A stretch of DNA of 64,000 bases from a virus, in the IMG/VR virus record IMGVR_UViG_3300042886_000261, positions 1 to 64,000 of that record; one strand, given 5' to 3'. Both the position numbers and the translations under genes were made by a program. This document shows positions 1,599 to 57,837 of this stretch, piece by piece (the first letter of the stretch is position 1; every line of letters starts with the position of its first letter). The notes beneath the pieces were generated by a model. That model was not told the origin of the DNA. It searched no databases and was given only the letters and a program-made list of their open reading frames with translations.

Positions 1599-4349
1599 TT
1601 ATTTTTTGTTATCAGATTTTCCTTTAACATCAAATTTATTTTTGTTTTCTCTAGCTATTTGCAATTGTTTATCAGCAATATTTTGTTGAACCATGAGTTT
1701 TTCTCTCTCTAATCCTGCTTTTTGATTATTGCTAGAAGTCCTATTAGATTCTTTTTGTCTCTCTAAACTCATTTGACTAGTAAACTGTTCTGAGTTTTGT
1801 ATTTCTCTTAGAGTATCATTGTAATCAGATTGTTGATTTTGATTAATATCTTGTGTAGCACCAAACCCAGCGGATCTAATTTCAGCAACAAGGATATCTC
1901 TCTGTCTATCTTTTTCTCCTCTAATGTCTTCTGAATCTCTTTTAAGTTTTTCATCTTCCGCTCTTGCTTTTAATGCTTGATCTTGCATGTCTTGTTGATG
2001 TTTCATTTCTGCATCTTTCTGTGCTTTAACTTTTTGCTCAGAATCTTTAAGTACACTATTTAATTCAGATATACTTTCTGACTGCATTAATTTTCCTAAG
2101 TCATATATTGAAGCTCCTGTAGTATTATTAGATATTGCCATGTTTTTCAATTGCTCTAATACTGCTCTATAGTTAGCTTTAGTAGTTGCAAATATATTAA
2201 GATCTCTCATTAATAAATCTGTACCATTAATCTGGAAGTTTACTTTTTCATCTGCAGAAGTCATATATGATAACCTAGCAGAAGGTTTAGTAGATTGATA
2301 AAACTGTGCAAGATCTGTTCTCATCTGATGTACTCTTGGCATTAAGTAATCTGAGTGTTGTATAAAGTACATTTCTGTTTGAGCATAAGATGATCCAACT
2401 GCTTGTTCTACACCTGTTGCAGTTTGTTGAGATAACTGCTGACCCATTCTTTGTGGATTAATACCTATAACTTCATATGCTTGTTGTTTCATATATGTAG
2501 CTAATTGTATTCTTGACATTAACCTATTAGTCTGTTCTAGGTCTAATTTCTGAAAGTGTTGGAAGTTAAGAGCATTCTCTGTATTAGTAATACTGGTATC
2601 TAAAGGAAGCATCTGAAAATTCTTCATTGCTACATAAGCTTTAGCTAAATTGTTTTTACCCCAGTCTTCACCCATAGAGTGTCTTGGTAATGCATTCTGA
2701 TCTAATAAGATAACTGTACCTAACTCATCTACTAAGATATCTGCTATTTGATTATTAACAATGTTATATCCTATCTGGAAAGGTTTCATTAAATCTATTA
2801 ATGCAGTTGACTTAGTATTTCTATCTGAGAATACTGCACCTTCTACTGGTAGTTTACATCCGTATAAACTATTATCACCTTTAAATTGAAATCTAAGTGG
2901 TCCTATATTTTGTTTATCAACACCAATATATATAGGAGTAAATCCACCAGGGTTATTCATACCCCAAAAAGAAGGAATATTTGGTCCAACTTTAATACCA
3001 CCCCATACCTCATTAATCCAAATCCAGTCTATATGCTCACCATATACAATATTGTCTTTAGTTTTATTTTTAAAGAGTCTTGTATCATACACGGGTGAGT
3101 CTGTTACTTTATAGTCTTCAGTAATAATTTCTGTAATTACTTCACCTGAGTCAGTAACTTTAGTTAAGTGACCTACTTTTCTTTGAGATTTCCAATATGC
3201 TGTAGTACAACGTAATAGATATGCAGTACCTTGATCATAATAATCTTCTCCTTCTCTAAGTATGTAATTAACAATATCTCCTCCGTTGAATATACTATTA
3301 GCTGCTGCAGTAGAATATTGTCTGAATCCTAATGAAGGCATATTAGTATTCCACTCATGTGATTTAGTAGCATCATAAAATGATCCGTCATTCTGAGTAC
3401 CACCAATATTATATCCTGCAGATCTGATAGGATAGATAGCTTCTAATGATGCCATCTGATCTTCATTCATCATATATCCATACTTGTCAATAACATCTGC
3501 TACTGTAAGCATGTCAGTTTTACCAACCCAGTTAGATTGTGATATGTATCTTGCATCAGGAGACTTATGATAAAATGTTAATACAGGATTCCATAATTCT
3601 ACATCATAATCATCTTCCATCATACGCATGTGCCAGAACTCTCTATCAGTAATAAGCATATCTCTGAAACCTCTTTCTTCTAACTCATCCATTCTGAATC
3701 TTTCAGTATCAACTTCATGTTGATGAGTAGCCCATTGTTCTACTATAGATCTATAATCTTTTTTAAAGAATTTTTCTATTTCAGGTAGTGTTTTAAGTTT
3801 TTCTGGATTTAATTTTTCTTGTGCTTCTGGAGATTCTGGATTAAGACCTTGTTCAATTAATGCAGATGTTATCTTCATCTGTGCATCTTGCATTAAGGTG
3901 TCTTCTACCATTTGTCTTTTTTGCTCCATCATATCATTATATGATCCTTCATCAACAGCACGGTAAGATAATTTACTTGATCTTTTAGCAAACTCAGCTA
4001 CAAGAACATTAATTACATTGGGTATAATTGGATAAAATTTAAGTTCAAGTGCAGAAGAATCTTCTTTAGTAAGAGTCTCAATTATATCTCTATAATCATT
4101 ATCTTCCTCTACAATGTAGTCAGACTTATCAATAACACCTTTAGCTAACTTATAATTTTTCATTAACCTACGGGCATTTCTCTTAATCTGTTTAAGACCA
4201 TTCCACTCTAACCAGTCAAGATTCCAAGCTGCCCACTTATCATCTTTTTCTGCTTTAGGAATAAACTGTAAAGGTTGAGTTATACTACCTAACCTGTTGT
4301 GTTCTGTCTTTGCTCCTTTTTTTAACTGTAGTGCATTATATACTTGCAT
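1599..4349 (-). CDS. Portal protein (crAss-like)
   Basis: 916 aa directly downstream of TerL; YPIIPNVINVLVAE and LMKPFQIGYN segments and a long C-terminal coiled coil typical of crAss-like portals. Confidence 0.85.
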   Translation of the reverse strand: MQVYNALQLKKGAKTEHNRLGSITQPLQFIPKAEKDDKWAAWNLDWLEWNGLKQIKRNARRLMKNYKLAKGVIDKSDYIVEEDNDYRDIIETLTKEDSSALELKFYPIIPNVINVLVAEFAKRSSKLSYRAVDEGSYNDMMEQKRQMVEDTLMQDAQMKITSALIEQGLNPESPEAQEKLNPEKLKTLPEIEKFFKKDYRSIVEQWATHQHEVDTERFRMDELEERGFRDMLITDREFWHMRMMEDDYDVELWNPVLTFYHKSPDARYISQSNWVGKTDMLTVADVIDKYGYMMNEDQMASLEAIYPIRSAGYNIGGTQNDGSFYDATKSHEWNTNMPSLGFRQYSTAAANSIFNGGDIVNYILREGEDYYDQGTAYLLRCTTAYWKSQRKVGHLTKVTDSGEVITEIITEDYKVTDSPVYDTRLFKNKTKDNIVYGEHIDWIWINEVWGGIKVGPNIPSFWGMNNPGGFTPIYIGVDKQNIGPLRFQFKGDNSLYGCKLPVEGAVFSDRNTKSTALIDLMKPFQIGYNIVNNQIADILVDELGTVILLDQNALPRHSMGEDWGKNNLAKAYVAMKNFQMLPLDTSITNTENALNFQHFQKLDLEQTNRLMSRIQLATYMKQQAYEVIGINPQRMGQQLSQQTATGVEQAVGSSYAQTEMYFIQHSDYLMPRVHQMRTDLAQFYQSTKPSARLSYMTSADEKVNFQINGTDLLMRDLNIFATTKANYRAVLEQLKNMAISNNTTGASIYDLGKLMQSESISELNSVLKDSEQKVKAQKDAEMKHQQDMQDQALKARAEDEKLKRDSEDIRGEKDRQRDILVAEIRSAGFGATQDINQNQQSDYNDTLREIQNSEQFTSQMSLERQKESNRTSSNNQKAGLEREKLMVQQNIADKQLQIARENKNKFDVKGKSDNKK

Positions 4350-4355
4350 ATTCTT

Positions 4356-6566
4356 TTATTTTAAATTTTTAAATGGTGATCTGTTAAATTTTTGATTTTC
4401 ACCTAATCCACTTCTACCCATATGTCTAAAAGGACTACTCTTTAAGGTATACAAATTTTTTGAATTTTCCAATTTTTTACTTGCCTCATCTCTTACAATT
4501 CTTTTTGTATAACCCATATTAGCTTGTTGGATTTTAAGAAATGAAACTAATGCAGAAAAAGCTACTAACCTATCCACGTTGAGTCCATCTTGATAAGCCT
4601 GCATTTCTTTCATTAACATTATATCCGGTATTCTTTCTACACCATAATGTATCTTTACAGTAGTACCATCATCTTTCTGTATATGATCTATCTCTTCAGT
4701 TAAGAAATCTTGAGTATAACTGATCATATGATTCTTAAATAGTACTCCTGTATTTCTCCATCCGTATTCCTGGAATACATTTGCATTAGAACCTAAATCT
4801 TTTAAGAATACTATTTTGTTTCTTGGTACCAGATATCTTTGTTTCTTTCTTGATATCATGTGGTTTATAAATTGAGATATATTATTCTCTACTATAGTCC
4901 ATGCATTATACCATTCTATTATTAACTCTAGTCTCTCATGTGTTTTATTGATATCATCAAACCTTCCACACCATGCTGCTACAATTTTATCTCTTTCTAT
5001 AAATGTCTCAGCCTCACCATTAGTAACCTTAGTTACTTCAACTGGAGCTTTCATTATATATATGGAACATAGTGAGTCTGAGGTAGTTGTCTTTCCTTCT
5101 GCAACAGGGTCAATACTACCATAGTACATACCAAATGTAGGATCTGGTACTGGTCTTTCCCATACTACTAATGTACCTGTTTTATCTTCTGTCTTCTTAG
5201 ATATAGGGAATTCTGCTATTGGTAATTTATTAGTAGCTTTTACTTTTACTTTACCGGTTTCATCTCTAGATATATCAAGAAACTCTGAAGAGTATTCTTT
5301 TTCTTCTATTCTTTTTATCTGAGCATTTACAAGATGTGGTGGGAATTTAGCCTCTTTTCTAAATGCAAATGCCTCTTCTATATTTCTTGGATGCTGAGAT
5401 ACCTCAAGTTGATAATCTTTAGGTTCTTTATTTTTCTTGATTTCCTCAAAGTATTCATCTAAAGCAATTAATGCTTCTTGGACAAGTGAATTACCATAGT
5501 CATCTATATATGGTGGCATAGACCATTGTTCCGGTATAAACAATCCTGATTCTCCCCATGTATTATCTTTATCAATTAGATTAGTTTTAACTGGGTATAT
5601 ATCATTACTAATTGGATCAAGTATCATTTTCTTTAAAGGACCACATTGATCAAGATCCCCTACTGATCCTGCAGCAATAAATAATCCTGTAGTAATCATA
5701 CCAGACTTAAGTGCTGGCTTGATATATCCAAAAGTTGTATCCATCTTGGGAGCAATTCCTGCTTCCTCATGAAAGAAGAACTTAACTGGACCCCCTACAC
5801 CATTTGTTGGATCTTTCTCAAAAGACATACCTTGCATAGTACCTTTAAGTCCTATTTCAGCTTTTCTATCACCTTTTCTTATTTCAATTTTTTGTTGCCA
5901 CATCATTATTTTATCTGGAGACATAGGTCTATACCATGCAGTATGTTCATTTAAGAATGCTGCATACTCAGATAAAAACTTCCATGTACCTTTCTCATTG
6001 ATGTAATCTTTAAGTGAGGCACCCATTTTTAATGTGACCCCTGCTTCAAACCATAACTGATTAATGAGTTTACCTGCATGAAAGTATGAACTAGCTATCT
6101 GTCTTTTTTTAAGAATAGCCACGTGCATGTAGTTTATCTCTGCAAGTATCTCATATAAAGCCATGTGATATTGTGCATCTCTTATCTTAGCAAATCCAAA
6201 CTTTTGCTCTTCCTTATCAAAGATAGGTAAGAAGTTTAACCACATATAATAATCTCTTGTAAGGAACCAGGTTTTAGGTCCTGATTTAATTATTACACCT
6301 AATCTGCATTTAGCTTTTTGGTCTTCCCAATAGTTAATAAAATCTTTAGATTTAAAGGGAGCTACACAATATACTTTATCTATATTGAATTTTGTTGATT
6401 CAGATATAAATATTTTATTACTAACATCATCAAATTCATATTCACCTGGCTCTTTAAATAATGCAAACACAAACTCACCAAATTCTTTTCTTGTATCAAA
6501 AGATGTAGTAGTCCATGTTCCATTATCCCAGGTGGGGATATCCGTGTACATATTTTCCATAATCAA
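4356..6566 (-). CDS. terL: Terminase large subunit
   Basis: ATPase motif LKKRQIASS, Walker B FFHEEAG, nuclease-domain GSIDP and DRLVAF; adjacent to portal. Confidence 0.92.
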   Translation of the reverse strand: MIMENMYTDIPTWDNGTWTTTSFDTRKEFGEFVFALFKEPGEYEFDDVSNKIFISESTKFNIDKVYCVAPFKSKDFINYWEDQKAKCRLGVIIKSGPKTWFLTRDYYMWLNFLPIFDKEEQKFGFAKIRDAQYHMALYEILAEINYMHVAILKKRQIASSYFHAGKLINQLWFEAGVTLKMGASLKDYINEKGTWKFLSEYAAFLNEHTAWYRPMSPDKIMMWQQKIEIRKGDRKAEIGLKGTMQGMSFEKDPTNGVGGPVKFFFHEEAGIAPKMDTTFGYIKPALKSGMITTGLFIAAGSVGDLDQCGPLKKMILDPISNDIYPVKTNLIDKDNTWGESGLFIPEQWSMPPYIDDYGNSLVQEALIALDEYFEEIKKNKEPKDYQLEVSQHPRNIEEAFAFRKEAKFPPHLVNAQIKRIEEKEYSSEFLDISRDETGKVKVKATNKLPIAEFPISKKTEDKTGTLVVWERPVPDPTFGMYYGSIDPVAEGKTTTSDSLCSIYIMKAPVEVTKVTNGEAETFIERDKIVAAWCGRFDDINKTHERLELIIEWYNAWTIVENNISQFINHMISRKKQRYLVPRNKIVFLKDLGSNANVFQEYGWRNTGVLFKNHMISYTQDFLTEEIDHIQKDDGTTVKIHYGVERIPDIMLMKEMQAYQDGLNVDRLVAFSALVSFLKIQQANMGYTKRIVRDEASKKLENSKNLYTLKSSPFRHMGRSGLGENQKFNRSPFKNLK

Positions 6567-21863: not shown

Positions 21864-22493
21864 TTAATTAATAAATTCTACTGTTTCATCTTCAGGTATT
21901 GCTATTGTAAAATCAATATTTACTTGAGCTTTAAATGGAGTAGCTGCTGCCATTACTAAAGTATACCAATGATCTTGTATAGTACTAATTGTATTATCAT
22001 CTGCTATAAGAGCATTTGTTGTTGAAATTAAATTACCTGCATTATTAGCTACTAAAACATTAAAGTTCATTGCAGAAGCAACAGTGTCATATATATTAGT
22101 ATTTTCTGCTAAGATTACTGTATCTTCTCTTACTCTAAATGAAGTATTAGAACCTGAAACAACTCCAATAAGCAGAGCATATGAACTTGAACCTGTAAGA
22201 TCAGCAATACCTTGTATTCTATATCTTTTAAGTACAGTACCATTTTTCTTAGTTATTGTACCACCTATTGCAGTCATAGTAGCTTGAACTGTTGGTTCAA
22301 TTGAACCTTGTACAAAGGTTACTGAAGGATCTGAAACTACAGCAGCAAAGTCAGCAACTGAAATAGTACCAGCTAAGTAGTCATCATCTCTACGTCCATC
22401 TTTAAGACCTAATGGTATTACTGTTTTAGCAGGGTCTACTGTTGTTACTATTCTCTTACCTTTAATCCAACTTATAAAATTTAATATATCCAT
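21864..22493 (-). CDS. Structural/decoration protein, paralog of 22698..23369
   Basis: Shared N-terminus MDILNFISWIK.KR..TT and RDD.YL. Confidence 0.6.
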   Translation of the reverse strand: MDILNFISWIKGKRIVTTVDPAKTVIPLGLKDGRRDDDYLAGTISVADFAAVVSDPSVTFVQGSIEPTVQATMTAIGGTITKKNGTVLKRYRIQGIADLTGSSSYALLIGVVSGSNTSFRVREDTVILAENTNIYDTVASAMNFNVLVANNAGNLISTTNALIADDNTISTIQDHWYTLVMAAATPFKAQVNIDFTIAIPEDETVEFIN

Positions 22494-22509
22494 GTTATTT
22501 ATTTTATGT

Positions 22510-22680
22510 TTATGCTCTAGTAAATAAATTTGCTTTTATTTCATTAGCTTTTTTTCTAATTTCTGCTTGACGTTTTTTGTCTCCTTTTACTTCTTCTTTA
22601 GCTGCTTTAGCTGCTTGAGCTTTAGTAAGTTTTACAGCAACTGGTTTACTCCATCCTGCTAGTTTATTAAATAATCCCAT
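22510..22680 (-). CDS. Small K/A-rich basic protein (56 aa)
   Basis: Not in track; MGLFNKLAGWSKPVAVKLTKAQAAKAAKEE...TRA*. Confidence 0.55.
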   Translation of the reverse strand: MGLFNKLAGWSKPVAVKLTKAQAAKAAKEEVKGDKKRQAEIRKKANEIKANLFTRA

Positions 22681-22697
22681 GATTAATATTTTTTAAA

Positions 22698-23369
22698 TTA
22701 GTATATAATAAAATTTATTTCTTCACCTTCAATAGTTAAGAACTCATATTCAAATGAAACTTTAGCATCAATACCATCAATACCAGCAGTAGCCGCATCT
22801 ATTACTAAATACAAATCTACTTCAGTTGGAGAATAATTATCTAATGCAATAGTCATATATTCTGCAGGAATTCTAGCACCACTATTATCATCTGTTACAA
22901 ATGCACCATTTGCAAAAGCAGATGCAAGTGATGATGGTGTTAATCCATTAGAAGTTACTGACCCAGATGTTTTCCATGGCAAATTAAAATTAAGACCATT
23001 AAGACATTGTATTGTACCAATGTATTCTACAATACTATTATCTGCAATAAGATCATATGATCCACCTATTTTTTGACCAACTAGATTTGCTGCAAATGCT
23101 GTAGGAAAAGCAGGAGTATCTTCAATTCTTGTACAAGTTTTAATCATTGATGGTGTAATGATCCAAGGATAATCATCTAAGATACCTGTTTTATAAGTAC
23201 TATTAGCTTGACAACCTGCAGCAACTGCATCATTTAATGTCATTGCTACTGTAAGATATTTGTCATCTCTTTTTCTTGAGGGCGCACCTACAGCAACTAA
23301 AGATCCATCTGGAGGTGTAGTAGTTACACGCTTTGCTTTGATCCAGGAAATAAAATTTAAAATGTCCAT
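22698..23369 (-). CDS. Structural/decoration protein, paralog of 21864..22493
   Basis: Shared N-terminus; first gene behind a TATATTA promoter. Confidence 0.6.
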   Translation of the reverse strand: MDILNFISWIKAKRVTTTPPDGSLVAVGAPSRKRDDKYLTVAMTLNDAVAAGCQANSTYKTGILDDYPWIITPSMIKTCTRIEDTPAFPTAFAANLVGQKIGGSYDLIADNSIVEYIGTIQCLNGLNFNLPWKTSGSVTSNGLTPSSLASAFANGAFVTDDNSGARIPAEYMTIALDNYSPTEVDLYLVIDAATAGIDGIDAKVSFEYEFLTIEGEEINFIIY

Positions 23370-23396
23370 GATTATTTTTTTTATATATATATACTA

Positions 23397-23403
23397 TAAT
23401 ATA
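23397..23403 (-). promoter_or_regulatory. Putative late promoter motif TATATTA
   Basis: Found about 23-31 nt upstream of structural operon heads: 1511-1517, 11225-11231, 19329-19335 and 23397-23403. Confidence 0.45.
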
Positions 23404-23417
23404 CAAAATAATTATAT

Positions 23418-23505
23418 AAAAAACAAAATCCCAGATTAATTTTCTGGGATTTCCTTACCTAGCTAGTCGAATAAATAGTCTAATACTGAGAATAATAGTT
23501 TAGCT
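23418..23505 (-). ncRNA. Putative small RNA A
   Basis: TATATTG-like promoter at ~23510-23516, no ORF, ends in UAGGUAAGG plus a 10-bp terminator hairpin and U-tract shared with sRNA C. Confidence 0.45.
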
Positions 23506-23531
23506 GTTGCAATATATAAATAATATTTTAA

Positions 23532-23753
23532 TTAGATATACTTTTTTAATTTTTTATTTCTAATTTTTTTTGTCTTATGTATACTTTTTCTAGCAGAGGT
23601 TCTAGCATTAACCATTTTGTTTTTAACTCTTAGGTCTTCCTTGAATACAATCTTATTACGCATTGCCATATCATCATTGTGACTCCCTCCTTGATTATAG
23701 TTAGGACCAACTGATGCACATGAATACAATAATAATATCAAGAACCATTTCAT
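23532..23753 (-). CDS. Small lipoprotein
   Basis: MKWFLILLLYSC lipobox; basic tail. Confidence 0.55.
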   Translation of the reverse strand: MKWFLILLLYSCASVGPNYNQGGSHNDDMAMRNKIVFKEDLRVKNKMVNARTSARKSIHKTKKIRNKKLKKYI

Positions 23754-24064
23754 TTCTTTAACTCAGCTATTCTTCTTTTTAAATATACTTCAGCTTTTTC
23801 CAGATCCTCTAACTCTTTAGTAGCATCTTTTTTTCCAGCACGTGCCAGATATTTAATTACATTACCTAAGTAAAAATCTTTATCAAGTCCCCATGCTTCT
23901 AGTACGTTGAATACTTCATATACATTTCCATCACCACCATAGTGTTCTGGTCTTAGTACAGGCTTAGGAGTTGTGTACTTAAAAGAGTTTGGTAATGCAT
24001 TATCATAATATCTATTCTTAGATTTCTCATTATAGAGATCACAAAGTTTATTCATATCTACCAT
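23750..24064 (-). CDS. DUF3310-like phage protein
   Basis: PEHYGG...FYLGNVIKYLARAGKK...EDLEKAEVYL. Confidence 0.85.
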   Translation of the reverse strand: MVDMNKLCDLYNEKSKNRYYDNALPNSFKYTTPKPVLRPEHYGGDGNVYEVFNVLEAWGLDKDFYLGNVIKYLARAGKKDATKELEDLEKAEVYLKRRIAELKK

Positions 24065-24348
24065 ACTATTGCAATGTCATATTCACTTACCATCAACTTA
24101 ATACCTCCGTCAACTTCAATAGCTTCTGCATTCTTGATAGCATTAACACCAATGTAAACTACATCACCTGCCTCTAAAGTTTTAACTTCTTCACCAACTG
24201 CATACACTGTTAACTTGGTCCACTTCTTCATGTCCTCAGCATCCATGTGTGCTTTGTCAGCTTCACTTAATTCAATCACAGATTCTTTTCTTTCTGGCTG
24301 ACTGATTAATACTCTACGTCCTTTAAGACTTTTAATTGCTTTACTCAT
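24058..24348 (-). CDS. groES: GroES-like co-chaperonin
   Basis: LKGRRVLI...VYAVGEEV..LEAGDVVY...MVSEYDIAIV resembles Cpn10. Confidence 0.75.
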   Translation of the reverse strand: MSKAIKSLKGRRVLISQPERKESVIELSEADKAHMDAEDMKKWTKLTVYAVGEEVKTLEAGDVVYIGVNAIKNAEAIEVDGGIKLMVSEYDIAIVW

Positions 24349-24409
24349 AATACTATGTTTTAATTATCCAGTAAAGATAATAAATTTATTAAACAATTAA
24401 AGTTTAAAC

Positions 24410-24497
24410 AAAAAAATAAGTCTAGAATTTTACATCTAGACTTACCCTGATAACCAATCAAAACAATAACCATTATAAATCGCAAAACAATAATGAT
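24410..24497 (-). ncRNA. Putative small RNA B
   Basis: TATATTTG promoter 24502-24509; GGUAAG running into a 10-bp terminator taagtctaga/tctagactta plus U-tract; no ORF. Confidence 0.5.
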
Positions 24498-24513
24498 ATC
24501 ACAAATATAAGTA

Positions 24514-24777
24514 TTATTCAAATACCTTATACATCCTATTAAATTTTTTTTCTGGCATGAGTGAAAATGTACCGGCCCAATCCTGTATCACATAGTCCCC
24601 CGGTACTAATCTAATTTCACCATTATCAGTAGTGAGAAAAAAGCTATCAAATTTATGATTGATATAATTAATATGTCCCTCAAAATTCTCATATCCGGAA
24701 ATCTTAATAGCACATTCTTCTGTACCATCATACTGTATAGCCTCAATACTCTTAGGCCTTTCTCTATATAACTGCAT
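24514..24777 (-). CDS. Conserved phage protein (IEAIQYDG...PGDYV family)
   Basis: Motif pattern common in phages; own TATCTTTG promoter. Confidence 0.7.
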   Translation of the reverse strand: MQLYRERPKSIEAIQYDGTEECAIKISGYENFEGHINYINHKFDSFFLTTDNGEIRLVPGDYVIQDWAGTFSLMPEKKFNRMYKVFE

Positions 24778-24809
24778 AATAAATAATTTTAAGATACAAA
24801 GATAATAAT

Positions 24810-24882
24810 AAAAACAAAATCCCCAGACATGTGCCCAGGGATTTCCTTACCTAACTAAATAAATTTAAAAAAATTTATGATA
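24810..24882 (-). ncRNA. Putative small RNA C
   Basis: TATATTTG promoter 24887-24894 right behind a terminator; no upstream ORF; 3' end shares 16 nt (TAGGTAAGGAAATCCC) and GGGATTTTGTTTTT with sRNA A. Confidence 0.55.
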
Positions 24883-24898
24883 CATGCAAATATACAAT

Positions 24899-25030
24899 AA
24901 AAAAACCCAGGTAGTAATTCTTGATCAGAGAAACTTTCCTGGGGGTAGTAAAGTTATAGACATTGTCCTTTCCCTTACTAAGAAGTCCAAACCTGGGACG
25001 CTGATCTTACGGGAAGCGTGTCTGGCACCT
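24899..25030 (-). ncRNA. Putative structured small RNA D
   Basis: TATATTTG promoter 25035-25042; GC-rich stems AGACA/TGTCT, CGCT/AGCG, TCCC/GGGA; CCCAGG/CCTGGG terminator plus U-tract. Confidence 0.55.
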
Positions 25031-25221
25031 AATACAAATATAAAACAATTCCCCGGGAATACACCTTACCTATAATAAATAAATACGGAGGTAGATTTAG
25101 TATATGCAGTAAGATGTAGTGGACCCTCCATAGCAAACCCCCCGGCCCTTCAGGCCTAGCTGGTACCCCCCATTGTTTAAAGGAATTCAGCTCACAACCA
25201 TTATGAAAAATACTAAAAATT

Positions 25222-25419
25222 ATGAGAACAGATATTAGAATTGTACTTGTGTTGGTGGATCCAACACTTGCTACTGCTGCACCTGAAGGTGCTAGAGTTA
25301 TTGCTATGAGCCAAGCTCAAGCAATGATCAACACCTGGATAACACAAGGTGTTCTTGTTAAATATAAAGTTGGCCCTTGTAATGACCACTTATTATTTGA
25401 GATTATAAGAACTAAGTAA
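25222..25419 (+). CDS. Early hypothetical protein
   Basis: A-rich leader; followed by terminator taagggt/accctta. Confidence 0.6.
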   Translation: MRTDIRIVLVLVDPTLATAAPEGARVIAMSQAQAMINTWITQGVLVKYKVGPCNDHLLFEIIRTK

Positions 25420-25433
25420 GGGTTATACCCTTA

Positions 25434-25488
25434 TTTTTTTCTTGCCTGCGGCAGCTTTTATTTATTCAGCTCTAAACTATTAGGGATA
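25434..25488 (+). repeat. Early-region repeat copy (triloop hairpin + CAGCT..ATTCAGCT..AAACT..GGGATA)
   Basis: Near-identical to 25953-26004; partial copy at 25144-25193. Confidence 0.8.
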
Positions 25489-25517
25489 TAAATGTTTAAT
25501 TAATTAAATTTAGAGTT

Positions 25518-25844
25518 ATGGAAACTGTTAAAGACCCAATTGCGGTTTGTACTATTAAAAGTATAGACGCAGAAATCAGTATCAATACCAATGGTAAAAG
25601 ATACAAAAAAGTAACTTTAATCACTGCTTCAGGGAAACCTGCTAGAGGAGTGATTTATGAAGTTGTGTGGGATAAAGTATCTCAGGGAGATGAAGTAAAT
25701 GTGGCGTTATCCTTAATGGATGATAACAAAACACTTATCCCAAGTGTATTAGGATTACCAATGGAATCATTATCATATGATGATTTTGGTATCACTGCAC
25801 CTGCACCTGCTGTTAAAGATGATATGGAAAACCCATTCTCTTAA
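25518..25844 (+). CDS. OB-fold/SSB-like early protein
   Basis: Beta-rich (NGKRYKKVTL) with acidic DDMENPFS tail. Confidence 0.5.
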   Translation: METVKDPIAVCTIKSIDAEISINTNGKRYKKVTLITASGKPARGVIYEVVWDKVSQGDEVNVALSLMDDNKTLIPSVLGLPMESLSYDDFGITAPAPAVKDDMENPFS

Positions 25845-25855
25845 CACGGAAGAAT

Positions 25856-25892
25856 AAACCCTTACCTTAATAGGTAGGGGTTTATTATTTTT
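25856..25892 (+). terminator. Intrinsic terminator
   Basis: aaacccttacc/ggtaggggttt hairpin plus T-tract. Confidence 0.7.
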
Positions 25893-25952
25893 ATTCCCAT
25901 TGTAGTTAAATGTATTACTGTGTTTGATATACTGTGTATGATGCACTATGTA

Positions 25953-26004
25953 TTTTTTCTTGGCTTTGCCAGCTTTATTATTCAGCTTTAAACTGTAGGG
26001 GATA
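25953..26004 (+). repeat. Early-region repeat copy
   Basis: Matches 25434-25488 with a covarying hairpin stem. Confidence 0.8.
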
Positions 26005-26470
26005 GTAGTGTTGGTAAATTATGTGGTCTATTGATATAAAGATATAATGTCATTTAACTACATGGTCTTATTATATATACTTAGTCAGATGCATTAAGTA
26101 TAAGTTGACAGTAATGTTGTATTTATATTAATCATATTGACAGTCTCACACCGGTACTTGTAGTCAAATTGATTATATTATAGGTGATGTTAGTTATGTT
26201 GTAGGTAATGTTGTAACATGCTGGTAGTTAAATAGTTATGTGGATATAATTTGTGTGAGAATGTGTGAGATAAAGTAGTTGACAGTCAAACACCCACCTA
26301 AACTAATGCTTTAACTCACATCTGTAACTACCTGATTAGGCTATATCTATATTAATATATGGCTAAATCATGAACTTAGTCTACTCACTCACATTACAAT
26401 ACTATATTCTTATCTATTAGTTAGTAGGAGAGTATAATAGCTATTGAATCCGGAATCTTAATAAATTTAA

Positions 26471-26683
26471 AATAGTAATGTACCATTCTCACTTCCCAAG
26501 GGTGAGCAGTTGTAATACACATATAGACTCAGTTGAAACCTCCAAAGGCTCCCTTAAAAAGCCCAATAGAATATTTGGTAAATACTGTTTAAAATGGTGT
26601 ATGTAACATGTCTGTGATAGACTCTTTAATTAGAGAACTAAAACATCAGCTTATGTATTACAACTGAGTACAGAGGGATTATT
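26471..26683 (+). ncRNA. Twister-like self-cleaving ribozyme (type P1) with ~135-nt insert in P5
   Basis: P1 aatag/ttatt; UAA cleavage loop 26476-78; P2 tgta/taca; P4 ctcac/gtgag with loop (t)TCCC-AA-GG; T1 TCCC/GGGA; T2 CC/GG; GA after P2'; 13-bp P5. Confidence 0.65.
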
Positions 26684-26684
26684 A

Positions 26685-27225
26685 CCGTGATGTCCTGTTT
26701 GGGTTCTTGAATACACGTAAAAACTGAAGAACATCCTATCCAGTAAGTTGCTGGCGTTGGCTCACCATAACAGACAAGTGAGAAATTAAATGTAGGTGAC
26801 AACCATTAACCAAAGAGGATCTTTGGGGTTACGCTGAACAGATTGACAAAGTCTTTAGTATCATAAATCGGGGATGCCCAGTTCAGTATTGATACACTAC
26901 ATTTTAATAACATAGTCCTATGCACCTTAACCAATAAAAGCTAAGGGACTTAATCCGTTAAACAAAGGTGGTTAGCAATAACCAGTATATAAGGAGTGTT
27001 ATTATTATATGATTCAAGACAATCAATCCTGAAGAGGATTTGTCAGGAGAAATTCATAAGGCTGAACAATAGTTCAGTATATAAACTTATGATGTCTAGC
27101 CTGATATAAACAAGCAGAGTACATTGTACTAACTTATCTGTGCTTTTGGAGTTAGCTACCAAGGGTGGGAACGGGGAACAGAGTGTGTAGATATTCCATG
27201 GGTCTACACCTGCTTGTTTATTTTT
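26685..27225 (+). ncRNA. Multi-domain structured non-coding RNA region
   Basis: No ORF in the track, GC-elevated, many nested inverted repeats (e.g. 26788-95/26897-904, 27054-60/27086-92, 27106-17/27210-21). Confidence 0.55.
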
Positions 27226-27265
27226 ATTAACTGAAAAATTATTAACTGAAACTAAAACTGAAAAG

Positions 27266-27406
27266 ATGAAAGAATTAACATGTAGTCAATGTGGTAATAT
27301 TATTATAGAATCTTATGTAACAAAAGGAACATATATACAATGTTTTGATTGTTATGCACAAGAAGAATATGATTTTGAAAACCCAAATCTTAATGATTAT
27401 GAATAA
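27266..27406 (+). CDS. Small zinc-finger protein (46 aa)
   Basis: Not in track; MKELTCSQCG...QCFDC. Confidence 0.55.
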   Translation: MKELTCSQCGNIIIESYVTKGTYIQCFDCYAQEEYDFENPNLNDYE

Positions 27407-27644
27407 AGAAATAGTATATTGGACAATGAGAAATGGTCAGCAAATAGATGTTGACCTAATGGATGAAAAACATTTAAGAAATACTCTTAAAATGATTATT
27501 AGAAACTCTAATAAACAAGTAGTTAAACCTGTTAAAGAGTTTAAATTCAATGGTGAGATTGCACAAGAAATGCATGATAATATGATCATTGAAGAAATAA
27601 TGGGAGATATGATGGATGAATGGTATGATATAACTGAAAATTAA
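27399..27644 (+). CDS. Early hypothetical protein (start MNKEIVYW)
   Basis: W....G....V..M...HL.N.LKM motif common in phages; ATG at 27399 preferred over the track start. Confidence 0.65.
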   Translation: MNKEIVYWTMRNGQQIDVDLMDEKHLRNTLKMIIRNSNKQVVKPVKEFKFNGEIAQEMHDNMIIEEIMGDMMDEWYDITEN

Positions 27645-27658
27645 AAACTGAAAAGATT

Positions 27659-27961
27659 ATGAAAGCAATTAGATTTGGTAAGTTAAAAAGTACAACTATT
27701 GTTGAATTAGTAGCAATGATTGGTGTAGATACAAACCCTAACTCAAAGGTTTATATTAGCACAGAAAAACCTGCAAAACAAGCATGTGAATATACCATTG
27801 AAGAATTAGCAAATATGTTAATGATGGCAAAACAAGCCAAGTTAGCAGAAGATGCAAGAACATTTGAGTTTAATAACCGTGAATTATATGAGTATATAAA
27901 ATACAAGATTAAACTTGAATATGATAAAGAACAACAAGAAGAAGATTATAATTTTAACTGA
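27659..27961 (+). CDS. Early hypothetical protein
   Basis: 100 aa, AACTGAAA leader. Confidence 0.6.
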   Translation: MKAIRFGKLKSTTIVELVAMIGVDTNPNSKVYISTEKPAKQACEYTIEELANMLMMAKQAKLAEDARTFEFNNRELYEYIKYKIKLEYDKEQQEEDYNFN

Positions 27962-27980
27962 AAACTAAAAACTGAAAATT

Positions 27981-28097
27981 ATGAGTGAAGAAGAGTATGA
28001 TGCATTTATGCTAGCAGTAGAAGATGTAAAAAAGAGATTGTATTATTATGATCCAGAAGCTCCAGAGGATCCAAATCCATTTGGAGTATTTGATTAA
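27981..28097 (+). CDS. Small acidic protein (38 aa)
   Basis: MSEEEYDAFML...PFGVFD*; AACTGAAA leader. Confidence 0.45.
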   Translation: MSEEEYDAFMLAVEDVKKRLYYYDPEAPEDPNPFGVFD

Positions 28098-28104
28098 TAA
28101 TAAA

Positions 28105-28229
28105 CAGATTGACCCAAAGGCATGGGTTGCAAATTAAGGTTAGTGTCCGCGCGTTGAAGATCATGAGAGGGTTATTGCGTGGTAGACTATTTAATTTGTT
28201 CTTTACAATCTGAACAGGTGCTTCCTGTT
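28105..28229 (+). ncRNA. Structured intergenic RNA element
   Basis: cagattg/caatctg enclosing gaccca/tgggtt and gcaaattaa/ttaatttgt with ccgcgc/gcgtgg, then aacagg/cctgtt. Confidence 0.5.
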
Positions 28230-28253
28230 ATTTTTAACTTAAAACTAAAAATT

Positions 28254-28520
28254 ATGAAACTAATATTAATAGCATTAAGCTTCTTTGGATATAATACTCC
28301 TAAAGATAGCAGATCAACAACCAGGTTTACTAAAAGTGAAACAGAATTCATTAATAATATTATTAAATTAAATGGTGAACCTAATGAAATATATCACTCA
28401 GGTAAAAATATTCAAGTTAATTATTCAAATCAAAGATTAAGCTTAGGTCAAGATGGATTTATCCATGAACTTGAAGTTTTAGTTGATGGACAATGGATCA
28501 ATGCTGGTCCTGAATTTTGA
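28254..28520 (+). CDS. Hypothetical secreted/membrane protein (start MKLILIAL)
   Basis: ATG at 28254 with A-rich leader; the upstream GTG lies in structured RNA. Confidence 0.55.
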   Translation: MKLILIALSFFGYNTPKDSRSTTRFTKSETEFINNIIKLNGEPNEIYHSGKNIQVNYSNQRLSLGQDGFIHELEVLVDGQWINAGPEF

Positions 28521-28762
28521 TTACTGAAAATTGTTTAGTGGGATGTAATGAGATTACACACCATAGAAACTGCAGTGAATATGTATTACAGAAGATAAGT
28601 ATAAGAGAGATAACCTGTAAAGAGGGTTATCTTAATTTATTATCATATCATAAGGAATATGCAGTATTAGGAGAATCGGCTATATCATACACAATAATGT
28701 GTGATAATGGTCACGTAAAAAAATTAAGTAAAAAGTTATTTTATGGAGGAAATGATAAATGA
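28517..28762 (+). CDS. Hypothetical protein
   Basis: 81 aa, overlapping stop/start. Confidence 0.45.
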   Translation: MITENCLVGCNEITHHRNCSEYVLQKISIREITCKEGYLNLLSYHKEYAVLGESAISYTIMCDNGHVKKLSKKLFYGGNDK

Positions 28763-29010
28763 ACTGAACAGTCTGAGAGAAAGTCTCAAGGATGTAGACT
28801 CTTTAAATGCATCATGGGATGTAAAAGAGTATATGAAAAATGAAATTCAATATGCAATTATGTGTATTGAATTCACAATAACTAACTGATATGGAAACAT
28901 TAATAGTAATAAGTTGTTCAATACTAGTAGTAATGGTCAGTGTAATGATCATAATCAGTATTGATAAAAATAAATAACATTTTGGTCAATGTATATAATT
29001 CAGAAAAGAT

Positions 29011-29232
29011 ATGGAAAAAGATTTAATTATGTCAGTGATAGGTTTTGATAAAGCTTGTCAACTTGAGGTAGACGGTAAAGTACTTACAGGAGGTGTAACT
29101 AGAACAGTTATGCCACCTGTATATGGTATTGCAAGTGAAGAATGTATTAACAATACCCTTGATGTTAAGGTGTTTGACCACTTTAACTGGGAGTTATTCT
29201 TTAGGTTAAGGTCAGTAAAACATTCATTATGA
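29011..29232 (+). CDS. Hypothetical protein
   Basis: 73 aa. Confidence 0.55.
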   Translation: MEKDLIMSVIGFDKACQLEVDGKVLTGGVTRTVMPPVYGIASEECINNTLDVKVFDHFNWELFFRLRSVKHSL

Positions 29233-29654
29233 GTAAAATAAGAATAGAAGTGGATGAAGAGAAATTAGTAAATGCATTAGATGGTTTTATTGGTGCTGGT
29301 GGAGTTAGAGATCTTATAAAAGATATGTTTAATCATACTCAAAAAGCAAAAGAAATGCTTGGTCAACTATTATTAGGTGAAGAATTACCTATAAAACCAA
29401 CTGTTGGTCAAATGGGTTATGTCAAAATGGAACACATGTGGTTTACTAATAAAGAATTTACACAGAATACTAATTTAGATGTAAAAGGAACTTTATCTTG
29501 TAAAGTAGTAAGAATTAATGGATATACTGAGTATTCACAAGTATCAATAGAATTTCCAACATATGATTCTGCAGGTGAAATACAAATTATATCAAATGGA
29601 GTTGCTTTTGATCAATTTATTTGGTTACAAGAGGATTTAAAAGATAGTATCTGA
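29229..29654 (+). CDS. Hypothetical protein
   Basis: 141 aa; terminator-like hairpin at 29677-29700. Confidence 0.65.
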   Translation: MSKIRIEVDEEKLVNALDGFIGAGGVRDLIKDMFNHTQKAKEMLGQLLLGEELPIKPTVGQMGYVKMEHMWFTNKEFTQNTNLDVKGTLSCKVVRINGYTEYSQVSIEFPTYDSAGEIQIISNGVAFDQFIWLQEDLKDSI

Positions 29655-29786
29655 GTATACTACATGACCAATAATTTGGGGAGTATTTATATTCCCCATT
29701 ATTATTTAGCCATATAATGCTGAAATAAATGATAAACTGTTGAATTATTTATATATAAAGTCTAAATTTAGACTTATTTATAAAAC

Positions 29787-30068
29787 ATGCAATATCAGTT
29801 ACCTACGGGACGTGTAATTTACATTACTATAGAACAATATTTGTCTATGACTGATAATGATATACAGTATCTTATATCAACAAATGCAGGTGAATCAATT
29901 CACAATCCCTTCACTAGATCTGCACTAGATGAAAACTCCACAGAAAAGCACAAAAACAAAGAATATGATTTCTCATTTATTTCACCAGATGATGAGAATG
30001 TAAGAGAAATATCATTTGAGGATTTAACTCAAGATGATTTAGATAGAATAGATAGTATGGATATGTAA
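29787..30068 (+). CDS. Conserved hypothetical protein
   Basis: MQYQLPTGRVIYITIEQYL start, acidic tail. Confidence 0.65.
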   Translation: MQYQLPTGRVIYITIEQYLSMTDNDIQYLISTNAGESIHNPFTRSALDENSTEKHKNKEYDFSFISPDDENVREISFEDLTQDDLDRIDSMDM

Positions 30069-30161
30069 AACTTAACTTGGAAGAGTAGGCCAAGGAATAG
30101 CTAAAATTATACTCAAATCAATTAAAAAACAAAACAAGTATTAATCGCAAAAACACAAGTT

Positions 30162-30632
30162 ATGAGTAAAGTAAGAGTAATTGGAGATGAAACAGGAAAT
30201 GTTATCAACCAGTCAGCAACTAATCCAGATTATGGATATGTAAGAGTAGAAAGTGTAAAAACTACCATTGATGATAATGGATTTTTAAGAAAAAGATCTA
30301 TTAGTACCTTGATTCAAGGTCATTTAACTGATTTAAAATCAGAAGGTTATTACAGTGGACAAGAATTAAATGGTAAAATTGTAGTATTGGAGGCATTAAC
30401 TCCATTTAACAAAAAGAATCCTGAAAGAGATATTAAACAAGCAGGTAACACTGGTATTGTTTGTACTCTTGGAGGTGAACCAATTTACAGAAAAACTCTG
30501 TACACATTATCATCAAATGCAGAAGATGTATTTATTAAACATGATAATGTAGAGCAAATCAGAAATGCATTTGGAGGTGTTCAAAAAACATCTGCAGTAA
30601 ATGCTGAAACATCTGATGAATTCAATTTTTAA
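30162..30632 (+). CDS. Putative single-stranded DNA-binding protein
   Basis: Beta-rich body, flexible linker and acidic/aromatic tail ETSDEFNF; own terminator at 30648-30677. Confidence 0.5.
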   Translation: MSKVRVIGDETGNVINQSATNPDYGYVRVESVKTTIDDNGFLRKRSISTLIQGHLTDLKSEGYYSGQELNGKIVVLEALTPFNKKNPERDIKQAGNTGIVCTLGGEPIYRKTLYTLSSNAEDVFIKHDNVEQIRNAFGGVQKTSAVNAETSDEFNF

Positions 30633-30694
30633 GTATTAAATGTATATAAGGGATAGTGTAACAGCTATCCCTTTTTTATTAATTGTAAAAACTA

Positions 30695-31195
30695 ATGGTC
30701 ATGGAGTTACAACAGAACAACAAATTAGAGTATAAAGGTAAGTTAGAGGCTTATCAATTGTATAGAGGTAATACTTATACAGAATATGAAAAAGATAACT
30801 ATAACGGTTATCAAAATCATTTATATAAAAGAGCATTATATGGTCTAAGTGCATTTACTCAAGATGAAATTGCTACTATGTGTAGTAAAAAGAAACAAAG
30901 AGTAAACAAAGTGTACATGAAAGGTCAGAATGTTATTAACCTGTATAAGCAAAAGGTAACTAATGCTTATAGTAATTTTATATTCAAGACATTATTCCCA
31001 GAAAGTCCTATAACACAGTTCTTTATTGAAACTGAGGAAACAGATGTAGATTATAAAAATACACTCTCTTTTAAAGATCTTAATATCAGTAAAGACCAAA
31101 TAGTTGGTGTATTTATTACTGAAGGCATATTACCTAAAAACTTTCATGAGTTAGACAGGGACTTTAATGCTTTACCAAGATTAAAGAAAGCATAA
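30695..31195 (+). CDS. Hypothetical protein
   Basis: 166 aa; terminator at 31203-31228. Confidence 0.65.
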   Translation: MVMELQQNNKLEYKGKLEAYQLYRGNTYTEYEKDNYNGYQNHLYKRALYGLSAFTQDEIATMCSKKKQRVNKVYMKGQNVINLYKQKVTNAYSNFIFKTLFPESPITQFFIETEETDVDYKNTLSFKDLNISKDQIVGVFITEGILPKNFHELDRDFNALPRLKKA

Positions 31196-31240
31196 TATTA
31201 ATGGGTAGATGTAACAGTCTACCCTTTTAAACTACTAGAT

Positions 31241-31738
31241 ATGAACAGAAATGTAATTATAGAAATAATTGTTGTAGTATTAATGTTATCATTATTAATT
31301 TTATTAGTCACACATAAAAAGAAATCAGTCTTTGATTATAAAACATACAATTATGAAAAGTATGATTTAATATTAGGTAAAGATGCTTGTCAAGTATTTT
31401 ATGCATATAGAGTATCTGAAATGCATGGACTGTCTGTAGAAGGTGCAAAGAAAAGAATATCTCAAGGAGGATCTTATATTGATGGTTTAAGTAATTACCA
31501 TCCTAAAGATAAAAAATTGGATATGAAACTAAAACCTTTTATATTCTTAAATCTGGGTTCATTAAATAAAAACTATTCATTAGATGAAATACATACAGCT
31601 GTAATGCATGAAACTATGCACATGGCTATTAAATGTTTTAACTATGATTTAGAAAACCATGAAGAAGATATGATTACATGGGCTGAGTCTGAGGCTAATA
31701 AGATAATTAAACTGTTAAATAAAGAAAAATACATATGA
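31241..31738 (+). CDS. Membrane-anchored HExxH metallopeptidase-like protein
   Basis: N-terminal TM; MHETMH...EED. Confidence 0.6.
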   Translation: MNRNVIIEIIVVVLMLSLLILLVTHKKKSVFDYKTYNYEKYDLILGKDACQVFYAYRVSEMHGLSVEGAKKRISQGGSYIDGLSNYHPKDKKLDMKLKPFIFLNLGSLNKNYSLDEIHTAVMHETMHMAIKCFNYDLENHEEDMITWAESEANKIIKLLNKEKYI

Positions 31739-31944
31739 AACAGACAGCAGTAGAATGGTTTTATCAAAGAATCCTAGCAAAAGATATTGAATCAGTATTC
31801 AAACAAGCCAAAGAAATGGAGAAAGAGCAGATAAGAGATGCTTTCAATGCTGGTGATTTAGATTCTGATACTTATTTTATTCCATTTTTAAAAGAAAGTG
31901 ATGAATCAGAAAACTACTACAATGAAACCTTTAAATCAGAATAA
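31735..31944 (+). CDS. Small protein of the 'MKQTAVEW...YYNETFKSE' type
   Basis: Stereotyped termini seen in Bacteroidota-phage small ORFs. Confidence 0.65.
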   Translation: MKQTAVEWFYQRILAKDIESVFKQAKEMEKEQIRDAFNAGDLDSDTYFIPFLKESDESENYYNETFKSE

Positions 31945-31945
31945 G

Positions 31946-32086
31946 ATGAATGAAGTAGAATTTTTAAAAAAAATATTAAATGAATTAAGTGATGCCAAAT
32001 ATGGTGAAGGTTTAACATTTAATATTTCATATATTGAAATGCTAATTAGCAAAAGAATAAAAGAATTAAAAACTAAATCAGAGTAA
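31946..32086 (+). CDS. Small hypothetical protein (start MNEVEF)
   Basis: Ends in KSE* like the preceding gene. Confidence 0.5.
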   Translation: MNEVEFLKKILNELSDAKYGEGLTFNISYIEMLISKRIKELKTKSE

Positions 32087-38726: not shown

Positions 38727-38961
38727 AGCAGGATTTGATAAAGTAATTGTTACTAAGGAAGAATCTGGTGATAAAAATGATTATTACTATTACTCATATG
38801 AAATAAACTCTGATGTAATACTGATATCAAATGAAAGTGATGAGATAAATAATAATCAGTGGAAAGTATATGAGCACTCTTGGGGTGTTGCTATGACAGA
38901 TATTGAAGATGTAGTATTACTTATTGACTTATTTAAAAAGTGGAGTAAAATACCATTATAA
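38704..38961 (+). CDS. Hypothetical protein
   Basis: 85 aa, EL..AGF motif. Confidence 0.6.
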   Translation: MKQQELTEAGFDKVIVTKEESGDKNDYYYYSYEINSDVILISNESDEINNNQWKVYEHSWGVAMTDIEDVVLLIDLFKKWSKIPL

Positions 38962-38980
38962 CCTTTAAAACAAAACCAAT

Positions 38981-39367
38981 ATGTTTAGCGCAAAATTTAT
39001 TAAGAAAAATGGAAAACTCACCTACAAAACTGAAAAGGAAAGTTTAGCTTATGCTGAATTTGTAAAATTAGTAGAAGAAGATGAGGAATTAGAAATGTTT
39101 ATTAGCATTCAAGGTAAATCTGGATCTTATGCACAAATCTCAAAAATACATGTATGTATTAGAGAAATGGCAAAAGAATCAGGATATACATTTGATGAAA
39201 TGAAAAAACTTGTCAAAACACAAGCAGGATTATGCTTTGATGTAAATGATGAAGGTAGAAAGCTTGAGATGTGCAAATCATTTGCTGAGTGTTCAAGTGA
39301 TGAGCTATCCCAAGCTGTTCAAGCATGTATAGAAATAGGAGCAGAGTACAATATTAATCTAGCGTAG
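38981..39367 (+). CDS. NinB/DUF1367-like protein
   Basis: S.AQ...IH..IRE.A.E.GYT.DEMK...KSFA.CS..EL. Confidence 0.55.
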   Translation: MFSAKFIKKNGKLTYKTEKESLAYAEFVKLVEEDEELEMFISIQGKSGSYAQISKIHVCIREMAKESGYTFDEMKKLVKTQAGLCFDVNDEGRKLEMCKSFAECSSDELSQAVQACIEIGAEYNINLA

Positions 39368-51147: not shown

Positions 51148-51204
51148 TAAAAGCATAAAACTGTTTCCCATAAAAAGGAGCATAAACACAATTAAAACAA
51201 ATAT

Positions 51205-51230
51205 AAAGCGGTGTAAAAGCCGCTTTTTTT
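51205..51230 (+). terminator. Intrinsic terminator
   Basis: aaagcgg/ccgcttt hairpin plus T-tract. Confidence 0.75.
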
Positions 51231-57728: not shown

Positions 57729-57837
57729 AGACACTTGCTCCAAGGGAGTATAGTTAAACAAATATATCAATTAAGGGATGCAGAAATGTGTCCCTTTTTT
57801 AAACTTGATATATTTAAATTAAAAAGATTTAAACTTA

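Follow-up and report, generated by a model that had tools for sequence, protein, structure and literature searches.

A candidate trans-encoded antisense small RNA that covaries with the leader of an SSB-like gene in an uncultivated phage with a putative Bacteroidota host

INTRODUCTION

The leader of T4 gene 32 (SSB) is autoregulated, with the protein itself acting as the repressor. In the temperate phages P1 and P7, the c4 antisense RNA serves in immunity and is released by processing of the operon transcript that also encodes its target (icd/ant). This RNA pairs to a phage mRNA at the ribosome-binding region and so blocks translation (PMC12197685). The OOP RNA of lambda and the sar RNA of P22 are cis-antisense phage RNAs (PMC12197685). 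In general, very few phage-encoded small RNAs (sRNAs) have a known phage target, and almost all of these belong to temperate phages of Proteobacteria (PMC12197685).

Here, we describe a candidate sRNA, termed sRNA B, and its predicted target in an uncultivated phage of ~107 kb (IMG/VR virus record of 106,750 bp). The DNA analyzed, hereafter the window, covers that record from its start to 64 kb. The promoters of the phage, together with leaders that lack a Shine-Dalgarno sequence, point to a host within the Bacteroidota. To our knowledge, these bacteria have neither Hfq nor ProQ and do not use Shine-Dalgarno-based initiation. In Bacteroides, an Hfq-less host without Shine-Dalgarno sequences, the first 30 to 50 nt of the sRNA GibS pair around start codons, and TAnnTTTG is the Bacteroidota -7 promoter consensus (PMC7366714).

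RESULTS

Genome setting

The window has a G+C content of ~30% and comprises a leftward and a rightward arm, separated by 2.4 kb without convincing open reading frames (ORFs) (Table 1). Leftward genes carry the Bacteroidota -7 box TAnnTTTG upstream, which lies 20 to 50 nt before minus-strand genes other than the sRNA unit, and Shine-Dalgarno sequences are absent at the start codons of the phage. A megablast comparison of window positions 22000-32000 with GenBank phages returned no match, and neither an integrase nor a repressor was found among the ~28 proteins scanned. Four RNA runs labelled as lake-water metatranscriptomes gave small shares (5-8% of sampled words).

The CG dinucleotide is strongly depleted, with 192 copies observed and 1407 expected (0.14 of expectation) over window positions 1-64000; the GC dinucleotide is normal, at 1.13 of expectation. 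CGA occurs 4 times compared with 496 expected. This avoidance suggests selection against TCGA-like or CG-containing restriction/modification targets.

Several other features of the window were recorded. Positions 24780-27265 hold G+C-rich, structured-looking segments and several terminator-like hairpins, for which no Rfam match was obtained at gathering score. The contigs of many relatives end within ~24.9-26.1 kb; this stretch therefore breaks assemblies, and it may be a repeat, a hypervariable region, or an end of the genome. The minus-strand terminators at 23425-23453 and 24816-24845 have the stem GAAATCCC.../...GGGATTTT and the tail GTTTTT in common, the second being followed by the TATCTTTG box of the 87-aa gene. 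Finally, TATATTTG boxes at 51198-51206 (minus strand) and 57759-57766 (minus strand) each stand directly after a hairpin. They lie within the rightward arm or at its end, where the minus strand is free of genes for 11-18 kb; these boxes could belong to further small or antisense transcription units.

Table 1. Features of the window that bear on the predicted sRNA and its target (positions are those of the window)
Feature	Position	Strand	Remarks
Leftward arm	from ~24.8 kb	-	small genes, then terminase (4356-6566) and portal (1599-4349)
Rightward arm	from ~27.3 kb	+	small ORFs, then helicase (at 33388) and DNA polymerase (at 54536)
Box TATCTTTG of 87-aa gene	24797-24804	-	
87-aa gene, upstream of the sRNA	24514-24777	-	stop codon abuts the sRNA box; synteny anchor
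Putative sRNA promoter, Bacteroidota -7 box TTATATTTG	24502-24510	-	3 nt past the stop of the 87-aa gene
Predicted sRNA B	24405-24497	-	~88-93 nt; predicted 5' end 4-8 nt past the box, 3' end at the U-run
Predicted target-recognition region	24451-24497	-	5'-terminal 47 nt of the RNA; complement of leader positions -47 to +4; RNAduplex -28.0 kcal/mol
Predicted 5' stem-loop	24469-24497	-	stem 24497-24490 with 24476-24469
Predicted intrinsic terminator hairpin	24413-24448	-	10 bp, then U7 at 24412-24406
thyA 3'-end remnant	24360-24410	-	~50 nt with homology to the 3' end of a thymidylate synthase gene
96-aa gene, downstream of the sRNA	24058-24348	-	second synteny anchor
Predicted target leader and start codon of 156-aa gene	30115-30165	+	A/C-rich, no Shine-Dalgarno sequence; core AAUCGCAAAA at 30143-30152
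Predicted target gene, 156-aa protein	30162-30632	+	N-terminal OB-like barrel (model), C-terminal SDEFNF tail

Gene neighborhood of the sRNA unit

An nhmmer profile located the sRNA unit in 43 loci, always following the 87-aa gene, and its synteny held in all examined relatives that carry this gene. Group 1 denotes the window lineage, and group 2 denotes relatives whose 96-aa protein is 71-75% identical. In group 2, the 87-aa gene is followed by a 120-nt spacer that has the box-plus-terminator layout, then by thyA (317 aa; PF00303, E 5e-61; L026:2036-2989), and then by the 96-aa gene. In the window lineage, thyA has been deleted, and it is absent from the rest of the window's record. The remnant retains a TTATCTTTA box (24380-24372), 23 nt before the ATG of the 96-aa gene at 24348; this box is probably the promoter of the 96-aa gene, and it lies inside thyA in relatives. 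Group-2 thyA begins 12-25 nt past the terminator U-run without a box of its own, so that read-through is needed. In these thyA-keeping relatives, the sRNA unit may also act as a thyA 5' leader via read-through of the terminator.

Anatomy of the predicted small RNA

The putative promoter box of the sRNA is kept as TTAT[A/C]TTT[G/A] at the same place in all sRNA variants of relatives, while its flanks diverge; a -33 TTTG at canonical spacing is absent. Approximately 50 U/G-rich nucleotides lie between the box and the terminator hairpin. In an alignment of eight variants, 7/12 pairs of the terminator stem are changed on both sides with pairing kept. The predicted fold of sRNA B has an energy of -19.7 kcal/mol (z -3.6 versus shuffles), and the predicted RNAs of the window and its relatives all fold better than shuffles (z -3.1 to -4.5). 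Those of G000 (the window), G001, and G006 share, in order, a 5' hairpin, a single-stranded U-rich stretch, and the terminator. The predicted 5' stem-loop of sRNA B displays the CG core in a 13-nt loop, UGUUUUGCGAUUU (24489-24477). UUUACGG(UU) is likewise found in the loop of the 5' hairpin in the G001 and G006 RNAs and less clearly so in that of G021. By analogy with classical antisense RNAs, a core displayed in a loop suggests a kissing start to pairing.

In Rfam searches, the window had no match that reached gathering score, and positions 24300-24600 had none at E <= 1. No ORF in the sRNA unit is conserved between groups 1 and 2. A 53-aa ORF with a TTG start (24521-24360) was rejected as a gene: it extends across the terminator, the frame is not maintained in L016, and its C-terminus is the thyA remnant. 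Group-2 sRNA units (L026:1945-1980, L023, and L097) contain an ORF of 9-11 codons that starts (M/V)FTVHLF and overlaps the core; having no group-1 counterpart, this ORF probably arises incidentally from the conserved RNA sequence. No gene lies opposite the sRNA, where the plus-strand ATG at 24493 opens 5 codons only, and a cis-antisense RNA of the OOP/sar type was rejected because of this lack of an opposing gene. By these features, the unit qualifies as noncoding, with its own putative promoter and a predicted Rho-independent terminator.

Two matching sites in the window

The first-pass annotation of this DNA had reported that plus-strand positions 24459-24495 parallel positions 30130-30164, with blocks in the same order and both stretches ending at ATG. 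A sequence check bore this out: the block order is identical, and ATG terminates both stretches (at 24493 and 30162). The 10-mer AATCGCAAAA is present at 24478-24487 and 30143-30152 and has no other exact copy in the window. The TCG within it was rightly called very rare, with 9 copies in the window compared with 494 expected from base composition; TCGC occurs twice, solely at the sRNA site and the 30162 leader site. The core shared by sRNA and leader is among the few places in the window that retain CG. CAAAACAA, found at 24459, 24483, and 30130, flanks the shared 10-mer in the same order. CAAAACAATAA is repeated as described, both of its copies falling within the sRNA B site, and the recognition region listed in Table 1 has the same coordinates as the stretch originally annotated.

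Within the window genome, the energy of the match is less distinctive. RNAduplex gave -22.6 kcal/mol for the minus-strand 49-mer with the 30162 leader (rank 2/117 leaders), and 56% of 248 dinucleotide shuffles match some leader at this value or better. With a longer target window, the 30162 leader reached -28.0 kcal/mol, at approximately rank 25 of 8534 sliding windows genome-wide (background, -16.6 +/- 3.6 kcal/mol). When unfolding costs were included, the pair scored -18.7 kcal/mol, a value reached by 1/60 shuffles. The first-pass annotation had stated that a match no better than shuffled background would count against pairing; for the single genome, this is partly the case, given the proportion of equally good shuffles and the genome-wide rank. 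Judged on the window genome alone, complementarity beyond chance is thus borderline. A U/G-rich RNA in an A-rich genome pairs with many sites. The leader of a 128-aa gene at 38981 (window 38941-39001) matched sRNA B more strongly than the 30162 leader did (-29.0 to -29.5 kcal/mol). In the relatives G001, G019, and G021, the corresponding match amounted to only -11.7 to -16.3 kcal/mol; since it is not kept, the match is probably due to chance or lineage specific, and the 38981 leader was rejected as a second target.

The putative target gene

The 156-aa protein matched neither Pfam nor PHROG at E <= 0.01, and a PDB sequence search gave no hit at E <= 1. Its AF2 model, built from 47 homologues (pLDDT 82.7), shows a beta-barrel in the N-terminal half and a tail that is disordered, with residues 140-156 at pLDDT < 50. 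Foldseek searches of PDB and BFVD with this model were dominated by SSB and PriB at weak E values (0.002-0.2), VIA-align gave Z <= 4.8 over residues 1-71, and the nearest named Atlas cluster was Phage_SSB, at 0.88. The C-terminus, S-[DS]-E-F-[NK]-[FI], is of the SSB-like acidic-aromatic kind in 7/7 group-1 and group-2 sequences of alignment A1, and the position of the gene in the replication arm fits an SSB-like reading. An SSB-like (OB-fold) identity, which the model weakly suggests, is therefore plausible rather than established.

A CTTGG/CCAAG hairpin precedes the paired leader (window 30076-30114), and its loop, GAGTA, can pair with a downstream TACTC. Among the leaders of L042-L179, those of distant clades keep GAGTA...TACTC with different stem sequences; the hairpin may represent a conserved pseudoknot or, alternatively, a promoter element before the SSB-like gene.

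Covariation of sRNA and leader in related phages

Six same-genome pairs were compared, namely those of the window (G000), the L016/L041 contig, G001, G019, G006, and G021 (also L134); the prefix G marks whole virus records, and the prefix L marks fetched loci. These pairs represent five sequence variants in two deep groups; G019 is identical to G020 at both sites, and an incomplete L114 copy appears to match. Covarying positions were read from individual duplexes, not column-wise from MAFFT alignments.

In every cognate pair, an interrupted duplex spans approximately -47/-57 to +1/+4 of the 156-aa gene. The core pairs UUUUGCGAUU with AAUCGCAAAA in group 1 and UUUACGGUU with AACCGUAAA in group 2, a switch that consists of two compensatory double changes (G-C to A-U and A-U to G-C). 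The A-rich block changes from UUGUUUUG with CAAAACAA to UUAUUUUAUU with AAUAAAAUAA. The AUG-proximal block takes three forms in three lineages, each complementary (UCAU/AUGA, CGUAAUAUA/UGUAUUAUG, and UGAUAAGUGU/ACAUUUAUCA), and a fourth block, UGAUUG/CAAUCA, is common to all pairs. Alternative helix registers exist because UUGUUUUG occurs twice in the RNA.

RNAduplex energies were -28 to -38 kcal/mol for cognate pairs and -14 to -18 kcal/mol, equal to background, for cross-group pairs; the group-1 and group-2 RNAs no longer match each other's leaders. The separation persisted with unfolding costs (-18.7 to -23.8 versus -6.5 to -13.4 kcal/mol), and for G001 and G021, 0/60 shuffles each reached the observed value. 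For G001, G019, and G006, the best non-self site among the ~1640 windows of the 16-kb locus was the cognate leader; in that of G021, the cognate leader was tied for best. The distance between sRNA and target is 5.7 kb in the window and 8.8-10 kb in G019 and G021. Because the covariation is drawn from two deep groups plus sublineages, it represents few independent events.

The covariation set leaves out L019/L020 (sRNA variant CUUUUUCGGUU), L106 (leader AACCTTAAAA), and L107 (leader AACCGACAAAAAC). The model predicts a leader with AACCGAAAAA(G) as the partner of the L019 RNA and RNA cores UUUUAAGGUU and UUUGUCGGUU as partners of the L106 and L107 leaders, respectively. A search for the predicted L019/L020 target with the pattern AACCGAAAAA...ATGGAANCAAA gave 9 matches, all unrelated. 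For an L107-type sRNA, the pattern TTTGTCGGTT...TGATT had at least 120 matches, and none of those listed was related by nhmmer or tblastn. Upstream of the 156-aa gene, the sole L106-type viral contig extends for 3.5 kb and then ends.

Distant clades with the same type of 156-aa protein have a different leader (ATCTATTTATTTATT...), and the 87-aa gene was not found in G002-G005 and ten other records. A BLAST search of the G002 leader against G002 yielded nothing convincing, and in duplex scans of six 15-20-kb loci from distant clades, the best non-self matches fell in coding sequence and had no box or terminator. We treat the sRNA counterpart in these clades as not detected rather than as absent. 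With a different leader and no detectable counterpart there, the pair seems confined to one clade.

RNA pairing versus alternative explanations

The two sites could instead be copies of one double-stranded DNA element, either an operator bound by a DNA-binding regulator of the phage or gene-conversion repeats, with no pairing between RNAs. Such an element would likewise be expected to covary, and the plus-strand blocks do keep the same order and orientation, with ~75-85% identity over 45-55 bp, in every lineage. It should, however, accumulate G·U- and A·C-type mismatches equally. With the DNA copies aligned by identity alone, transition mismatches were G·U compatible at 10 distinct sites and of the A·C type at 1 (binomial p ~0.006), the G·U sense being that of minus-strand RNA from the sRNA site with plus-strand RNA from the leader site. 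Within a single genome, the two copies differ in block spacing by as much as 5 nt, which is awkward for a protein site but normal for an interrupted RNA duplex. Moreover, the transcribed leader alone resembles the sRNA site, and the region upstream of the leader does not. The G·U bias and the spacing differences thus fit an RNA duplex in the strand sense of the box and terminator and are hard to reconcile with a protein operator, with gene conversion, or with a plus-strand decoy; we consider a copied DNA element quite unlikely. The same bias is of the wrong sign for a plus-strand RNA that would mimic the leader and titrate a binding protein. Such a decoy could be read into the leader-like plus strand with its terminal ATG, but the plus strand has neither box nor terminator, and its ATG opens no more than the 5 codons noted above. 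A tiny minus-strand peptide as the product of the locus would account for the 9- to 11-codon ORF beginning MFTVHLF in group-2 units and for the 37- to 53-codon minus-strand ORF of the window. These small ORFs are not homologous between groups, however, and that of the window, besides running through the terminator, shifts frame in a lineage of 92% identity. Either of these other products is extremely improbable.

Chance resemblance combined with shared ancestry, by which an AT-rich, U/G-rich RNA would pair with many A-rich leaders to no functional end, agrees with the unimpressive single-genome statistics and with the match of equal strength elsewhere in the window genome. Chance does not readily explain why cross-group pairs fall to background while cognate pairs stay at -28 to -38 kcal/mol, why the 38981 match is not conserved, or why both partners keep CG in the core of a genome so depleted of it, and it appears very unlikely. 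The unit might also be chiefly a cis element that supplies the 87-aa gene with its 3' untranslated region and terminator and, in relatives, thyA with a 5' leader or attenuator. A trans RNA would then be a by-product, or the complementarity would couple leftward read-through to the abundance of the 156-aa mRNA. Its location directly 3' of the 87-aa stop codon and the read-through that group-2 thyA needs are in keeping with such a role. Yet the architecture is unchanged in the window lineage despite the deletion of thyA, and the next gene there has its own box. The duplex with the leader ends just short of the terminator stem, so that no effect on termination is obvious, and a cis element alone leaves the covariation with a site 5.7-10 kb away unexplained. 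We therefore regard a primarily cis-acting role as unlikely.

DISCUSSION

Proposed mechanism

As the energy of the match in a single genome is unexceptional, the comparison with relatives decides, and because both sites have changed together in related phages, an antisense RNA is the most likely explanation. We think it probable that sRNA B is a trans-encoded antisense sRNA that blocks translation initiation on the 156-aa gene. The proposals of the first-pass annotation fared well in this comparison. Co-conservation in related phages, which it had asked of the pair, is upheld by the compensatory changes in the six same-genome pairs and by the cross-group pairs at background. Pairing of the minus-strand RNA across the 30162 leader gains support from covariation and from the strand-specific mismatch spectrum. 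The suggestion of a trans-acting phage sRNA is likewise backed by covariation, the conserved -7 box, and the covarying terminator stem.

In the proposed mechanism, transcription would start a few bases past the TTATATTTG box and stop at the intrinsic terminator, giving a product of ~90 nt with a 5' hairpin that holds the CG core in its loop, a U/G-rich single strand, and the terminator hairpin. The first 47 nt would pair, in four to five interrupted helices, with nearly the entire leader and the AUG (-47 to +4) of a target that lies 5.7 kb off on the opposite strand, in the arm of replication genes. Since the presumed host initiates on unstructured A-rich leaders, the duplex should keep the 30S subunit off the 156-aa mRNA and thereby lower protein synthesis; it might also expose this mRNA to RNase III. 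The position of the sRNA at the head of the terminase/portal arm raises the possibility that the target is shut down as that arm is switched on. Accumulation of the RNA, repression, and timing are in each case our reading of the sequence.

Two extensions of the antisense mechanism can be envisaged, although we think neither probable. The RNA-leader pair could be a lineage-specific compatibility determinant (compare the heteroimmunity of P1 and P7), or it could be the first of four programmable box-plus-terminator riboregulators. In the former case, a resident or coinfecting phage would silence the SSB-like gene of kin with the same core and spare diverged relatives, and it would be escape from the RNA of a competitor that drives the covariation. 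In the latter, unit B would be the first of the four with an identified target.

The pair offers a concrete RNA and target with natural compensatory variants in a large uncultivated phage with a putative Bacteroidota host. If confirmed, it would place production of an SSB-like replication protein under RNA control and would indicate that Bacteroidota phages share a long-seed antisense logic with their hosts (GibS); the natural group-1 and group-2 pairs would then constitute two orthogonal repressor/leader sets. Single-genome energy statistics would have dismissed this pair, which comparative data support.

Comparison with known systems

Among described RNAs, GibS appears closest to sRNA B in design and c4 of P1 and P7 closest in biology. 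GibS of Bacteroides thetaiotaomicron is likewise an AT-rich RNA of ~100 nt with an intrinsic terminator and a TAnnTTTG-type promoter, and as proposed for sRNA B, it has an extended 5' recognition region and represses targets at the start codon (PMC7366714). GibS is chromosomal and has several metabolic targets and an unstructured 5' part (PMC7366714), whereas sRNA B is phage borne, with one conserved phage target, predicted pairing over nearly the whole leader, and a core in a hairpin loop. The two have no sequence relationship.

Like sRNA B, c4 acts away from its own coding position and carries recognition sequences in loops, and RNA and target covary between related phages, giving each phage its own specificity (PMC12197685). 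Unlike c4, sRNA B has a putative promoter of its own and a replication-type OB-fold protein as its predicted target, encoded 5.7-10 kb away; the two lie on opposite strands in divergent arms. OOP and sar resemble sRNA B in being short, in having their own promoter and terminator, and in reducing expression of a phage mRNA by pairing (PMC12197685). They are encoded opposite their targets and are perfectly complementary to them, whereas sRNA B has a distant target and an interrupted duplex. In both T4 gene 32 and the 156-aa gene, a structured element is followed by an unstructured A-rich leader and an SSB-like gene; the proposed difference is that an RNA, not a protein, would cover the leader of the 156-aa gene.
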